Source: Pedococcus sp. (lineage in GTDB: Bacteria > Actinomycetota > Actinomycetes > Actinomycetales > Dermatophilaceae). From it: DNA of 64,000 bases. The notes under the pieces were generated by a model, which was not told where the DNA came from, did no database searches, and saw only the letters and a list, made by a program, of their open reading frames with translations. Numbering within the stretch: the first letter of the stretch is position 1; every line of letters starts with the position of its first letter. Positions 8,290 to 21,832 of this stretch are shown here, piece by piece. The stretch spans positions 2,152-66,151 of the forward strand of contig DASUKI010000101.1 of the NCBI GenBank assembly GCA_036278855.1. Direction: 5' to 3'. Position numbers and translations under genes: made by a program.

Positions 8290-9831
8290 GTGAAGCTCGA
8301 GCTGAGAGGCATCACCAAGCGCTTCGGCTCCCTGGTCGCCAACGACCAGATCGACCTGGTGGTCGAGCCTGGGGAGATCCATGCGCTGCTCGGCGAGAAC
8401 GGAGCCGGCAAGAGCACGCTGATGAACGTGCTCTACGGGCTCTACCAGCCCGACGAGGGCGAGATCCTCGTCGACGGCGAGCCGGTCACGTTCTCCGGCC
8501 CGGGGGACGCGATGCGCGCGGGGATCGGGATGGTGCACCAACACTTCATGCTCGTGCCCGTCTTCACCGTCGCCGAGAACGTCAGCCTGGGCCACGAACG
8601 CACCAAGATGTTCGGGCTGCTCGACCGGCGCCGGGCGCGGCGCGAGGTCACCGAGGTGTCCAAGCGCTACGGCCTCGACGTGCCGCCGGACGCACTGGTC
8701 GAGGACCTGCCGGTCGGGGTCCAGCAGCGGGTGGAGATCATCAAGGCCCTCGTGCGTGACGCCAAGGTGCTCATCCTCGACGAGCCGACCGCCGTGCTCA
8801 CCCCGCAGGAGATCGACGACCTGATCACCGTGATGAAGGCACTCCGGGAGGCCGGCACCTCCATCGTGTTCATCAGCCACAAGCTGCGCGAGGTGCGCGA
8901 GGTCGCGGACAAGATCACCGTCATCCGGCGCGGCAAGGTGGTCGGCCAGGCCTCGCCGGAGTCGTCCGCCGCCGAGCTGGCCTCGATGATGGTGGGCCGA
9001 CCGGTGAAGCTGACCATCGACAAGGACCTCGCCACGCCGGGCGAACCGGTGCTGGAGGTGGCCGACCTGCGCGTGCTCGACGCGGACGGCCAGGTGCAGG
9101 TCGACGACGTCTCGCTCACCGTGCGGGCCGGCGAGATCTACGCCATCGCGGGGGTCCAGGGCAACGGCCAGACCGAGCTGACCGAGGCCCTCGTCGGACT
9201 GGCCCGCGCGACGCACGGGTCGATCCGCTTGGACGGCAAGGACATCACCCGGACCGCGGTCAACGACATCCTGCACAGCGGTGTCGGCTACGTGCCCGAG
9301 GACCGGATGCACGACGGTCTCGTCGGCAGCTTCACGCTTGCGGAGAACTTCGTGCTGGACACCTACAACCAGCCGCCGTTCGGCGACCGCGGCACGCTGG
9401 ACCTGCGGGCCATCCGCAAGAACGCCCAGCAACGTATCGAGGAGTTCGACGTGCGCACGCAGTCCGCGCGGGCGGAGGCGTCCACGCTGTCGGGCGGCAA
9501 CCAGCAGAAGGTGGTGCTCGCCCGGGAGCTGTCCCGTCCGCTGCGCCTGCTGGTGGTGGCCCAGCCCACCCGCGGCCTCGACGTCGGTTCGATGGAGTTC
9601 GTCCACCGCCGGATCGTGGAGGAACGGGACAAGGGCACCGCCGTGGTGCTGATCTCGACCGAGCTGGACGAGGTCCTCGGACTCGCCGACCGCATCGGCG
9701 TGATGTATCGCGGCAAGATCATCGGCGAGCTGCCGGCCGGTTCCTCAGCGCAGGAGATCGGCCTGCTGATGGCCGGGTCGACCTCGGTGGACGAACCCGC
9801 CGCCAGCACGAGCGCAAGGGAGGACCTATGA
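8290..9831 (+). CDS. Nucleoside/sugar (CUT2) ABC transporter ATP-binding protein, two NBDs
   Basis: [30 protein letters not shown]. Confidence 0.93.
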
Positions 9832-9941
9832 GGAGCCCCACGAAGTTCTCCGCTTCCCTGCCACCCCACGAAGTTCTCCACTCCGCCCCGACACTTCGCG
9901 GGGGCCCCGGCCTCCGATGCTTCGGGGGGGCTACGGAATGA
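9828..9941 (+). repeat. MIRU-like intercistronic repeat, copy A; 37-aa bridging ORF
   Basis: ATGA at both ends; CCCCACGAAGTTCTCC twice and ACTTCGCGGGGGCCCCGGC; reads [37 protein letters not shown]. Confidence 0.75.
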
Positions 9942-11281
9942 CGCAGGAAAAGCCTCCCACCGGGCCCATCGGGCCGAGCGACGCGACCGAACCCGCCGAC
10001 GGGGCCAGCCCGGCCCAGGGCGCAATGTCCACGCAGACGGAGCCGCCCGACGACTCCGCCGGGCCGGGGTCGGAGAGCGGCAAGGGAGCCGGCAGCCGGA
10101 TGGGGAGGATGCTGCACGGGGACAACCCGGTGCTGCTCACCTTCCTCGCCCTCGTCCTGGCCGGCCTCGTCGGGGCGGTGCTGATCGCGATCGGCGACCC
10201 CGCCACCCGTGCGGCCTCCAAGTACTTCTTCGCGGCGCCGCTGGACACCGTCTCGGCGGCCCTGAAGGCAGTGGGCAACGCCTACCTGGCGCTTTTCGAG
10301 GGATCGGTCGTGGATCCGTCGTCGTTCGCCAGCGGCAGCGCGACCGCGATCCTCGGGCCCATCTCGGAGACGTTGGTCAACGCGACCCCGCTGATCCTCG
10401 GTGGCCTCTCGGTCGCGCTCGCCTTCCGCGCGGGCCTGTTCAACATCGGCGGCCAGGGGCAGATCATCATCGGCGCGGTCTTCGCCGGCTACGTCGGCTT
10501 CGCGTGGGACCTGCCGGTCGTGGTGCACGTGCTGGTGGCCCTGGCGGCCGGCACCCTCGGTGGTGCGCTCTGGGGCGGCATCGCCGGATGGCTGAAGGCG
10601 CGCACCGGCGCCCACGAGGTCATCACCACGATCATGCTCAACTACATTGCGTTCAACTTGCTCGCGTTCCTGCTCGGCACCCCGGGCTTCCAGGCGCCGC
10701 CGTTCGGGCAGGCGATCTCCAACCCGGTCGAGGGCAATGCCCGCTTGCCGCACCTGTTGGGTGGTGACCTGCGGGTGCACGCCGGACTGCTGATCGCGCT
10801 GCTCGCGGCGCTGGGCTGCTGGTGGCTGCTTGACCGCAGCACGTTGGGCTTCCGGCTGCGCGCCGTCGGCGCCAACCAGAACGCCGCACGCACCGCGGGA
10901 ATGCACGTCGAGCGCAGCTACGTCGCGGTCATGCTCATCGCCGGTGGGCTGTGCGGGCTGGCCGGCTGCGCGCAGATCCTCGGCACCAACCCGGCCATCA
11001 CGCAGGACATCGACGCCGGGATCGGCTTCGACGCGATCACCGTCGCGTTGCTCGGCCGGGGCAAGCCCGGCGGCACCGTCCTGGCAGGCCTGCTGTTCGG
11101 CGCGTTGCGCGCGGGCAGCGTGACGATGCTGTCGGTCACCGGCACCCCGGTCGACCTCGTGCAGGTCGTCCAGGCCCTGATCGTCATGTTCATCGCCGCG
11201 CCGGCCCTGGTGCAGGCGGTCTTCCGGGTCCGCGCCCGCGGCGGCGTGGGCCAGGTCCTCGCGAAGGGATGGAACGGATGA
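9938..11281 (+). CDS. Nucleoside ABC transporter permease 1
   Basis: GLFNIGGQGQ, HEVITTIMLNY, GFDAITVALLG; multiple TM segments. Confidence 0.92.
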   Translation: MTQEKPPTGPIGPSDATEPADGASPAQGAMSTQTEPPDDSAGPGSESGKGAGSRMGRMLHGDNPVLLTFLALVLAGLVGAVLIAIGDPATRAASKYFFAAPLDTVSAALKAVGNAYLALFEGSVVDPSSFASGSATAILGPISETLVNATPLILGGLSVALAFRAGLFNIGGQGQIIIGAVFAGYVGFAWDLPVVVHVLVALAAGTLGGALWGGIAGWLKARTGAHEVITTIMLNYIAFNLLAFLLGTPGFQAPPFGQAISNPVEGNARLPHLLGGDLRVHAGLLIALLAALGCWWLLDRSTLGFRLRAVGANQNAARTAGMHVERSYVAVMLIAGGLCGLAGCAQILGTNPAITQDIDAGIGFDAITVALLGRGKPGGTVLAGLLFGALRAGSVTMLSVTGTPVDLVQVVQALIVMFIAAPALVQAVFRVRARGGVGQVLAKGWNG

Positions 11282-11412
11282 GTCACCCCACACAGCCACC
11301 CCACGAGGTTCTCCGCTCGCAAGCTTGCTCCGGTACCTCTCGGGGACCCCGGCCTCCCGTGCTTCCCGGGGGCAGCCCGGGCCTCCGCAACTCCGCGGGG
11401 ACCCCGGCATGA
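11278..11412 (+). repeat. MIRU-like intercistronic repeat, copy B; 44-aa bridging ORF
   Basis: ATGA at both ends; CACCCCACGAGGTTCTCCGCTCGCAAGCTTGCTCCGGTACCTCTCGGGGACCCCGGC; reads MSHPTQPPHEVLRSQACSGTSRGPRPPVLPGGSPGLRNSAGTPA*. Confidence 0.75.
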
Positions 11413-20702: not shown

Positions 20703-20781
20703 GCCGGGGTCACCCGCACCTTCGCCCGCGGCGCGATGCCCTTGGCGCGGAACGGCATACGGAGGGAGCAGGCACCATCAT
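20703..20781 (-). repeat. Degenerate MIRU-like repeat, copy D; 23-aa ORF 20781-20710
   Basis: ATG overlaps the moxR stop; ends GCGGGTGACCCCGGC-ATG, like copy B. Confidence 0.5.
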
Positions 20782-21758
20782 CGGGGGACCGGCACCGACG
20801 CCAGAGCACTGTCCAGGACGGCGGACACGTGGACCCCCTCCAGCTCGGCCTCGGGACGCAGCGCGATCCGGTGGGCCAGGGTCGCCTGCGTCAGGGCCTT
20901 GACGTCGTCCGGCGTGACGAAGCTGCGACCGTTCAGCCAGGCCCATACCCTGCTGGTGGCCTGCAGGGCTGCGGCACCGCGGGGGCTGACTCCCAGGGCC
21001 AACGAAGGAGATTGGCGGGTGGCCCGGGCGATGTCGACGATGTAGGCGGTGACCTCGGGTGCGACCCTGACGCGTCGGACGGCCGCAGCGCCGGCCTCGA
21101 GGTCGGCCGGCCCGGCGACGGGGGAGACCCCTGCGGCCGCCAGGTCCTGGGGGTCGAAGCCCGCCGCGTGCCGGGCGAGGACCTGCAGCTCGTCGGCGCG
21201 GGGCGGCAGTGGCAGGACGGCCTTGAGCAGGAACCGGTCGAGCTGCGCCTCGGGCAGGGGGTAGGTGCCTTCGTACTCCACCGGGTTCTGCGTGGCGGCG
21301 ACGAGGAACGGCGAGGGGAGGGGCCGGGAGGTCCCGTCGACCGAGACCTGGCGCTCCTGCATCGCCTCGAGCAGCGCGGACTGCGTCTTGGGCGGCGTGC
21401 GGTTGATCTCGTCGGCGAGCAGCAGGTTGGTGAAGACCGGGCCGGGCCGGAACGAGAACTCCGAGGTATGCGTGTCGAAGACCACCGAGCCGGTGATGTC
21501 GCCGGGCATCAGGTCGGGGGTGAACTGCACTCGCTTGGTCTCCACGTCGAGTGCCGCCGCCAGGGCTCGGACCAGGAGGGTCTTGGCGACCCCCGGCACT
21601 CCCTCGAGCAGGATGTGGCCCCGGGCGAGGAGGGCGATGATGATGCCGGAGACGGCTGCCTCCTGGCCGACGACGGCCTTGGCGACCTCCTGCCGCACCC
21701 CGAGCAGCGCGTGCCGCGCCGCCTCCGACGGCTCGGTCGCGTCGGGGGAGTCGGTCAT
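20778..21758 (-). CDS. moxR: MoxR family AAA+ ATPase
   Basis: GVPGVAKT, QFTPDLMPGD, LLADEINRTPPKTQSALLEAM, YPLPEAQLDRF. Confidence 0.95.
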   Translation of the reverse strand: MTDSPDATEPSEAARHALLGVRQEVAKAVVGQEAAVSGIIIALLARGHILLEGVPGVAKTLLVRALAAALDVETKRVQFTPDLMPGDITGSVVFDTHTSEFSFRPGPVFTNLLLADEINRTPPKTQSALLEAMQERQVSVDGTSRPLPSPFLVAATQNPVEYEGTYPLPEAQLDRFLLKAVLPLPPRADELQVLARHAAGFDPQDLAAAGVSPVAGPADLEAGAAAVRRVRVAPEVTAYIVDIARATRQSPSLALGVSPRGAAALQATSRVWAWLNGRSFVTPDDVKALTQATLAHRIALRPEAELEGVHVSAVLDSALASVPVPR

Positions 21759-21832
21759 GCGGGCGCCCCGCGAAGTACCGAGCGAGGCACGAGCGAGGAC
21801 TTTGTGGGGTGCTCTTGGTGGGGTGGGGTCAT
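21755..21832 (-). repeat. MIRU-like intercistronic repeat, copy C; 25-aa bridging ORF
   Basis: ATGA at both ends; CACCCCACAAAGTCCTCGCTCGTGCCTCGCTCGGTACTTCGCGGGG; reads MTPPHQEHPTKSSLVPRSVLRGAPA*. Confidence 0.75.

Follow-up and report, generated by a model that had tools for sequence, protein, structure and literature searches.

A short, non-autonomous hairpin repeat, dispersed across Knoellia and other genera, occupies three operon junctions in the window (the whole 64,000-nt stretch of Pedococcus DNA analyzed here), and at each of them the upstream stop codon is linked to the downstream start codon by a stop-free mini-ORF. Copies were recovered with a covariance model built on 20 examples, in agreement with the preliminary description, which had proposed a repeat family of this kind from the three spacers. 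We consider the repeat most probably a tolerated insertion, selfish or neutral, that is filtered at RTGA junctions for keeping the stop/start relay intact, and not a device that evolved to regulate its host operons. Literature searches by concept found no paper on the family, and searches by sequence string returned unrelated primer sequences alone; the repeat is apparently undescribed so far.

The three spacers are copies of one repeat, CACCCCACRARGT-loop-ACYTCKCGGGG-RCCCCG, and their shared core, ATGA boundaries and stop-free ORFs have the coordinates and lengths first claimed for them. Each spacer is bounded by two ATGA motifs: the TGA within the first terminates the upstream ORF, and the ATG within the second begins the downstream ORF. 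Two lie in an ABC transporter operon on the plus strand: e1 (9828-9941; 37-codon mini-ORF, ATG-to-ATG step of 110) joins an ATPase gene encoding two ABC_tran domains (Pfam; 8290-9831) to permease 1 (BPD_transp_2, Pfam; 9938-11281), and e2 (11278-11412; 44 codons, step of 131) joins permease 1 to permease 2 (BPD_transp_2, Pfam; 11409-12746). The third, e3 (21755-21832, minus strand; 25 codons, step of 74), joins a DUF4350 gene (Pfam; 21829-23097, minus strand) to a gene for a MoxR-type AAA+ ATPase (AAA_3, Pfam; 20778-21758, minus strand). The core CACCCCACRARGT occurs three times in the window against 0.43 expected, a count reached in 0 of 100 shuffles, and the covariance model matches e1-e3 at E = 1e-13 to 1e-14, with nothing better than E = 0.2 in the rest of the window. 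Micro-ORF relays near 38.7, 49.7 and 50.9 kb are not recognized by the covariance model (best nearby E = 0.6), which thus lends no support to reading them as decayed copies.

Internally, e1 is composite, combining one full unit with a partial left arm and an additional 3′ half-unit. Its full hairpin (9862-9903; left arm CACCCCACGAAGT at 9862-9874, loop, right arm ACTTCGCGGGG at 9893-9903) lies within the covariance-model match at 9854-9914 (E = 1e-13), and the extra, duplicated left arm CCCCACGAAGT (9836-9846) stands 28 nt upstream of the left arm of the full unit. Left-arm arrays with a 28-30-nt period, as for this extra arm, also occur in Flexivirga alba. Element e2 has a full unit with its left arm at 11297-11309 and its right arm at 11335-11345, plus a partial left arm and two 3′ half-units, and its match lies at 11289-11356 (E = 1e-14); the arms of e3 lie on the minus strand at 21811-21799 (left) and 21776-21766 (right; E = 1e-13). 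The draft genome to which the window belongs, a Knoellia MAG, contains three further copies arranged like those in the window (C102:4431-4499, C72:8277-8343 and C201:2302-2389, all minus strand), each with RTGA at both ends, and the relay is intact in all six copies of this genome. Rfam gave no match at the elements in the window region at E up to 1, nor, at the gathering score, at the elements in 16 loci from other genera.

Relatives carry empty versions of all three window sites, each as a single RTGA, as expected of insertions. At the DUF4350-moxR junction, 23 sister species have a single ATGA where the window reads ATGA-70 nt-ATGA followed by the same codons. Between the two permease genes, 22 orthologous operons have just one ATGA or GTGA, and the junction sequence is '...tggaacggATGAgc' in the orthologous operon whose permease is the most similar (71% identical, from another family). 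A lone RTGA likewise forms the ATPase-permease 1 junction in orthologous ABC operons of other families. Set against these sites, the duplication of an ATGA target suggested in the preliminary description stands for the window copies, which have ATGA on both sides. It does not extend to the many copies that lie 1-5 nt past an ordinary TGA, TAA or TAG without a direct repeat, or to reverse-oriented copies at carA-carB (GTGA...TGATG). At rpsR-rplI, comparison of the filled site with 27 empty ones reveals no clean insertion, and ~20 nt of spacer were replaced; together with flanks inspected by eye, this comparison yielded no consistent target-site duplication outside operons.

Across 28 Knoellia genomes the covariance model found 78 matches in 22 genomes (0-9 copies per genome), and a reversed control pattern found 0. 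Because -4 overlaps at both ends already define a relay, the observation that all relay steps equal 2 mod 3, offered originally as a 1 in 27 coincidence, is tautological, and the meaningful statistic is the share of copies whose relay is intact. By that measure the stop/start phase is indeed kept throughout: the relay is intact in 63 of 76 distinct Knoellia copies, or at ~28 of 35 site clusters, and spans 12 different lengths from 47 to 131 nt. Four Knoellia matches run counter to this, two of which score close to or at the E-value cut-off. Part of this phase conservation is inherited and not re-selected at each site, since new copies descend from copies that already carry a relay. Four taxa carry the element in reverse orientation at carA-carB, where it is spanned by a mini-ORF or is read as a CarA tail ending in TGATG; these reverse copies also keep the relay, and we therefore take translation through the element to be what is preserved.

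Conservation of a peptide is, by comparison, a scarcely credible account of the mini-ORFs, although most Knoellia copies are read in one frame (51 copies, against 5 and 3 in the others) and encode similar peptides (e.g., ...TPRSSALLRRSDTSRGPR), as would be expected of real small-protein genes. The earlier observation that the core is read in different frames is accurate for the window, whose three copies use all three frames, with the qualification that one frame dominates across Knoellia. Against a small protein, besides the frame use in the window, the 3′ arm is read in different frames in the two main subfamilies, reverse-orientation copies encode an unrelated peptide, and units can be fused or nested. 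Moreover, conservation tracks the nucleotide stem and not the codons.

Units are about 58-65 nt long, or 80-83 nt with a nested palindrome, and occur both dispersed and in head-to-tail arrays of two units, with one three-unit array at a 62-nt period; in one instance a 60-nt unit is joined in frame to a 62-nt unit to give a relay of 122 nt. The stem has 11 bp, of which 10 pairs are kept, with 87.7% of cells paired and compensatory changes at two stem positions. Its A.C mismatch, present without exception in 20 of 20 copies, reads as G.U (G.T) on the opposite strand. On the sense strand, which is the mRNA strand for most copies, folding predictions give no more stability than for shuffled sequences (z from -0.5 to 0), and only the antisense strand folds significantly (z of -2.1 and -2.6 for the two single-unit copies). 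The conserved tail RCCCCG extends beyond the right-side inverted repeat.

Tolerated insertion, our preferred reading, would proceed as follows. The repeat would have spread, and would still be spreading, through several actinobacterial lineages, settling at the 3′ edge of genes; where it landed in a 4-nt RTGA overlap inside an operon, only copies with an unbroken relay would have persisted. A start codon overlapping the upstream stop would open a mini-ORF that crosses the hairpin without a stop and closes with a TGA overlapping the start codon of the next gene. Because this mini-ORF bridges the two genes, ribosomes ending the upstream gene are predicted to translate through the element, melt the hairpin and terminate on the downstream start, so that termination-reinitiation coupling would be kept and the cost of the insertion to the operon would be small. 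Since the sense-strand fold is no better than shuffled, the argument that the hairpin must be melted is weak for forward copies.

The element might instead be kept because it benefits the operon, the idea behind the tuning of subunit stoichiometry suggested in the preliminary description: a REP-like RNA structure between cistrons, or a spacer that is translated slowly, could fix the ratio of upstream to downstream proteins, or the element could mark a site of RNA processing. Consistent with such a role, some sites are conserved across species (zwf-opcA in 10 genomes and the junction upstream of an Mce-like gene in 7) or across genera (carA-carB), the stem is conserved with compensatory changes, and REP sequences affect intercistronic expression (cited in PMC3184786). 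We nevertheless judge this improbable: plain RTGA overlaps suffice at the same junctions in most relatives, occupancy is patchy even between sister species, the host operons have no function in common, many of the copies in other genera are not in operons, and the sense-strand fold stays at the shuffled level.

The family is not confined to the source lineage, as had been supposed, but is patchily distributed over several actinobacterial families. Copies are numerous in Flexivirga and Leekyejoonella, with at least 82 covariance-model matches in F. alba, at least 115 in F. endophytica and at least 130 in Leekyejoonella, and the family is also present in Nocardioides and Propionibacteriaceae. 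The stem halves, 13 nt and 17 nt long (CACCCCACRAAGT ... ACTTYGCGGGGACCCCG), were found in Actinomycetota, in Paenibacillaceae and in single Myxococcota and Geminicoccaceae MAGs; the Paenibacillaceae copies have only the 60-nt unit in common, and no conserved gene was found adjoining them. When copies in other genera were sorted by ORF-based classes and a stop-triplet count, 19 of 55 formed relays, despite differing core and spacer lengths, and many lay outside operons. In a flank-unbiased sample, 64% of copies start 1-5 nt past a stop triplet, compared with 8% at random positions. Furthermore, some copies abut the 3′ end of the SRP RNA and others are found in the spacer between 23S and 5S, 5 nt beyond the 3′ end of 23S rRNA.

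Like REP and REPIN sequences, the repeat is a short, imperfect palindrome with many extragenic copies, and it could be imagined as a REPIN or PATE-like element moved strand-specifically, beside a tetranucleotide, by a single-strand HUH (Y1) transposase of the RAYT or IS200/IS605 type. The asymmetry of the hairpin, whose invariant mismatch becomes a G.U (G.T) pair on the strand that folds significantly, would fit such movement, as would inverted repeats that are not terminal on the right side and ATGA flanks that resemble a tetranucleotide target. However, the cognate transposase envisaged in the preliminary description was not found: PF01797 (Y1_Tnp) had no match in any of the 28 Knoellia genomes or in five other carriers (F. 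alba, F. endophytica, Leekyejoonella, Paenibacillus elgii and one Nocardioides genome), whereas it matched in 6 of 14 control genomes. In addition, plus- and minus-strand copies are intermixed on the F. alba chromosome without visible replichore bias, and altogether we regard Y1-driven movement as very unlikely. A MITE derived from an insertion sequence was also considered and rejected, there being no terminal inverted repeats shared with an autonomous element and no fixed-length target duplication; in F. alba, no long autonomous element with matching ends was seen, and unpaired arms bracket no 0.5-3 kb segment.

The stop-adjacent bias, the copies at RNA-gene ends, the antisense-only hairpin, the stems shared across phyla and the lack of a Y1 gene or parent insertion sequence could together point elsewhere. 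On these grounds we tentatively raise, as a minority possibility, that the relay copies are the operon-internal subset of a gene-end-seeking hairpin element; a novel mechanism could then be depositing a single-stranded hairpin where transcribed or translated units end, with another enzyme carrying the element between phyla. The preference for positions just past stop codons and the cross-phylum stems deserve specialist attention.

MIRUs have long passed for an oddity of mycobacteria whose main use is in strain typing. The repeat described here is a MIRU-like solution outside mycobacteria, in environmental actinobacteria, with clean empty sites and a relay kept in both orientations, and it supports a general rule that operon junctions with tight coupling tolerate mobile DNA only where the flow of ribosomes is maintained. 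Given that rule, the elements, which vary in length, frame and hairpin strength, would serve as natural experiments on termination-reinitiation coupling. On the practical side, their mini-ORFs are prone to be mis-annotated as hypothetical genes or left as unexplained spacers, and the arrays could serve as VNTR markers.

Among known systems, REP/REPIN sequences with their RAYTs resemble the present family in being short GC-rich palindromes in tens to hundreds of copies, often downstream of genes and sometimes intercistronic. Unlike it, REPs are not built as translated relay ORFs, and the present family has neither a Y1/RAYT gene in the tested genomes nor a GTAG-type 5′ motif. Rickettsia palindromic elements (RPEs), Correia elements and ERIC sequences are likewise small non-autonomous hairpin repeats whose copies in transcribed regions survive only if compatible with expression; RPEs, however, integrate in frame within genes and end up in the protein product, whereas the present element forms a separate mini-ORF between genes. 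It differs from these bacterial MITEs also in that no parent insertion sequence with matching ends was seen.

The closest likeness is to MIRUs (Supply et al. 1997), which PMC3184786 and PMC12548453 describe as units of tens of bases, dispersed and in head-to-tail arrays, lying between cistrons in operons and carrying a small ORF that overlaps the flanking stop and start at a -4 spacing; the same papers report tetranucleotide direct repeats, filled and empty sites, and no transposase of their own. Unit size, arrays, intercistronic location, -4 overlaps, tetranucleotide repeats, filled and empty sites and the lack of an own transposase all recur here, which upholds the MIRU comparison first drawn for the window copies, with translation of the mini-ORFs as a prediction from their sequence. 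The likeness meant here is one of architecture, and the hosts are Knoellia, Flexivirga, Nocardioides and others, not Mycobacterium. The present family is further set apart by the dominance of one long hairpin whose A.C mismatch is fixed, by many copies outside operons, past ordinary stops or at RNA gene ends, and by a stem sequence common to several phyla. The design is thus already known from MIRUs, and the repeat described here is another such element, apparently far more widespread.

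The three window spacers described as a palindromic repeat family are built as claimed: in each, the 5′ ATGA holds the TGA stop of the upstream gene and the 3′ ATGA holds the ATG of the downstream gene. Copy e1 (9828-9941, plus strand) separates an ABC ATPase gene from the first of two BPD_transp_2 permease genes, e2 (11278-11412, plus strand) separates the two permease genes, and e3 (21832-21755, minus strand) lies between a DUF4350 gene and moxR, encoding a MoxR AAA_3 ATPase. The mini-ORFs between the ATGAs are stop-free (37, 44, and 25 codons), with ATG-to-ATG distances of 110, 131, and 74 nt. 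The shared core has three matches in the window against 0.43 expected, a count that none of 100 shuffles attained, and a covariance model trained on 20 copies recovers all three at E = 1e-13 to 1e-14, the rest of the window never scoring better than E = 0.2. Micro-ORF relays at 38680-38729, 49716-49743, and 50924-50988, which the preliminary description had proposed as decayed elements, gain no support from this model as relatives of the family (best nearby match E = 0.6).

Orthologous junctions provide the empty sites for these copies. In all 23 other Knoellia species in which the DUF4350-moxR junction was recovered, the two genes overlap at a single ATGA with ‘ccga...’ behind it, and the window reads ATGA, 70 nt of element, ATGA, and then ‘ccgac’. 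In the operon encoding the permease most similar to that of the window (71% identical), permeases 1 and 2 meet at ‘ggatggaacggATGAgc’, which agrees with the window sequence as far as the site of insertion; 22 orthologous operons show a single ATGA or GTGA at this position, and the ATPase-permease 1 junction in orthologous operons is a single RTGA too. Given empty sites at all three junctions, each window copy was inserted into what had been a 4-nt stop/start overlap, and the MIRU-like relay insertion originally put forward is upheld. Permease 1 has orthologs in 118 of 151 genomes from the order, the best match being 71% identical and from a different family; none was recovered from the remaining 27 Knoellia genomes or from five further genomes of the family. 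The ABC operon (window 7000-13000) was either retained only here or acquired, then hit by two insertions. The draft genome holding the window, which belongs to the genus Knoellia (2.7 Mb in 332 contigs, 69% complete, 71.6% G+C), carries three additional copies, on contigs C102, C72, and C201, each with RTGA on both sides and an intact relay, that is, a stop-free mini-ORF whose start overlaps the upstream stop and whose stop overlaps the downstream start. Knoellia koreensis DB2414S and Knoellia pratensis carry copies as well.

Across the genus, the covariance model gave 78 matches in 22 of 28 Knoellia genomes (0-9 each), which, with duplicated contigs removed, amount to 76 copies in 35 site clusters. 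The relay is intact in 63 of the 76, at ~28 sites, with 12 relay-step lengths from 47 to 131 nt. An ordinary stop precedes seven copies, one of them judged a probable false match; four are read through, two of these lying at or near the E-value cut-off and one of the two being a probable false match; and two are in reverse orientation. The 2 mod 3 phase is definitional once overlaps exist at both ends, and it is instead the share of intact relays (>80%) that is informative. Furthermore, 60-nt units are seen only when fused in frame with a 62-nt neighbor, and core and spacer lengths co-vary such that their sum stays in phase, as they also do in Nocardioides, Flexivirga, Leekyejoonella, and Yimella.

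In its canonical form the unit reads ATGA-(a/g)cat-CACCCCACRAAGT-loop-ACTTCGCGGGG-(a/g)ccccg-ATGA, with an ATG-to-ATG length of 62 nt. Copies e1 and e2 are composite: besides one full unit, both contain a duplicated left arm and one or two additional 3′ half-units. The left arm is often repeated two to three times with a 28-30-nt period before the full unit, with repeated 3′ half-units following (window 9836-9874; Flexivirga alba chromosome C1:731804-731872 and 775950-776022, genome G176); arrays of the left arm alone are common in F. alba, and at loci from other genera the loops of copies often harbor nested copies. The repeat family seems to grow regularly by half-units. Many copies, from several genera and from sites unrelated to one another, also have a palindrome of ~20 nt (consensus GCCCACGCGGAGCGTGGGAC) in the loop; among them are contig C201:2302-2389 (minus strand) of the window’s own draft genome, outside the window, loci L013, L163, and L183, and ~10 Knoellia copies. 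The palindrome adds 21 nt and, this length being divisible by three, relays remain in phase (80- and 83-nt steps); it may represent either a second mobile module of small size or the element’s long form.

All three reading frames are in use among the window copies, and across the genus one frame prevails (51 vs. 5 vs. 3), as shared descent would predict; the reading frame of the 3′ arm differs between the two main subfamilies (...LLRRSDTSRGPR vs. ...LLRILRGDPA). Of the 11 stem pairs, 10 are conserved; two positions show compensatory changes, and copies at zwf-opcA have additional paired changes. One A.C mismatch is invariant (20/20 copies) and a second is frequent; because both are G.U on the opposite strand, the antisense strand folds much better. 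Compared with shuffled sequences, the antisense fold of the two single-unit copies reaches z = -2.6 and -2.1, whereas the sense-strand fold is no better than shuffled (z about -0.5 to 0). Either an intermediate of single-stranded DNA or selection that disfavors strong hairpins in the mRNA may underlie this strand asymmetry.

Reversed elements bear on the same question at the carA-carB junction, where they occur in two Knoellia species, a Phycicoccus MAG, and one other MAG (G010 C1:1780904-1780970, G017 C1:120518-120584, and loci L183 and L219). In the two Knoellia species no stop lies ahead of the element, which is read as a ~26-residue C-terminal tail of CarA ending in TGATG on the carB start, and in the other two taxa it is a separate mini-ORF running from GTGA to TGATG. 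Since the reversed copies are still spanned by an ORF, the preserved property is, to judge from sequence, translation across the element rather than one strand or one peptide.

The family had been proposed as a feature of this lineage, a restriction contradicted by copies in several actinobacterial families and by stem halves in other phyla. An exact-pattern scan with one genome per species gave at least 119 stretches; among the matches listed are Flexivirga, Leekyejoonella, Nostocoides, Phycicoccus, Lapillicoccus, Yimella, and Metallococcus, together with Nocardioides, Microlunatus, and Propionibacteriaceae and Cellulomonadaceae MAGs, and, with identical stem halves, Paenibacillus, Cohnella, Effusibacillus, and single Myxococcota and Geminicoccaceae MAGs. 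Copies found by the covariance model number at least 82 in F. alba, 115 in F. endophytica, and 130 in L. antrihumi, and the distribution within the order is patchy (10 of 151 genomes, 4 of 24 families). In Firmicutes and two other phyla we observed a ~58-nt unit with stem halves CACCCCACAAAGT ... ACTTTGCGGGGACCCCG and an AT-richer loop (L150, L161, L168, L176, L187, L196, L198, and others in Paenibacillus, Cohnella, and Effusibacillus; L181 in the Geminicoccaceae MAG; L197 in the Myxococcota MAG). These loci have nothing in common beyond the unit itself, which points to horizontal spread of the unit or to a recognition factor that is widely available.

The non-Knoellia actinobacterial sample, drawn from the matches listed, is unbiased as to flanks, and relays are formed by 19 of these 55 copies. 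A stop triplet ends 1-5 nt before the core in 38 of 59 copies among the matches listed vs. 8% of random positions (p = 4e-27), a count that takes in plain TGA, TAG, and TAA without ATGA. In Flexivirga endophytica (L157:746-894) a copy begins with the base immediately 3′ of the SRP RNA gene, and in Paenibacillus sanfengchensis (L168:3478-3540) another lies 5 nt past the 23S rRNA 3′ end, in the 23S-5S spacer, so the sites of the element include RNA gene ends as well as positions after stop codons. A copy directly behind the rpsR stop in the rpsR-rplI spacer of genome G001 (L087/L268) is not a clean insertion: it replaced ~20 nt of ancestral spacer, Shine-Dalgarno sequence included, and a three-codon micro-ORF (ATGAAGTCATGA) now overlaps an ATG that lies in frame, two codons ahead of the GTG start. 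No target duplication was seen in this sole non-operon comparison of filled and empty sites, and this, together with the plain-stop copies, contradicts a general ATGA duplication. ATGA on both sides of the operon copies is consistent with a 4-bp duplication, as MIRUs reportedly show, and is equally explained by an element that brings one ATGA and lands precisely beside a resident one.

The HUH/RAYT-type partner proposed at the outset was not recovered: none of the 28 Knoellia genomes and none of five further carriers gave a match to Y1/RAYT transposases, and control genomes matched in 6 of 14 cases. No long element sharing the ends of the repeat was seen in F. alba, on whose chromosome plus- and minus-strand copies are interspersed, nor was a conserved gene seen beside the Paenibacillaceae copies.

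Of the preliminary description, therefore, the MIRU-like relay insertion stands, lineage restriction and general ATGA duplication do not, and a RAYT partner was looked for and not found; the notable features are placement at gene ends, the strand asymmetry, stems shared across phyla, and the failure to detect a transposase. We found no published description of this repeat family in the literature. MIRUs, as described in the Delihas review of Supply et al. 1997, are 40-100 bp long, occur in 40-50 copies, form part of polycistronic transcripts, contain ORFs that overlap the adjoining genes at either end, and show tetranucleotide direct repeats and empty vs. filled sites (PMC3184786). Brown and Wade report that MIRUs insert at start codons with the MIRU ORF coupled at -4 spacing, which probably minimizes the cost of insertion (PMC12548453). 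Compared by design, not by sequence, the repeat family of the window shares every one of these architectural features with MIRUs.
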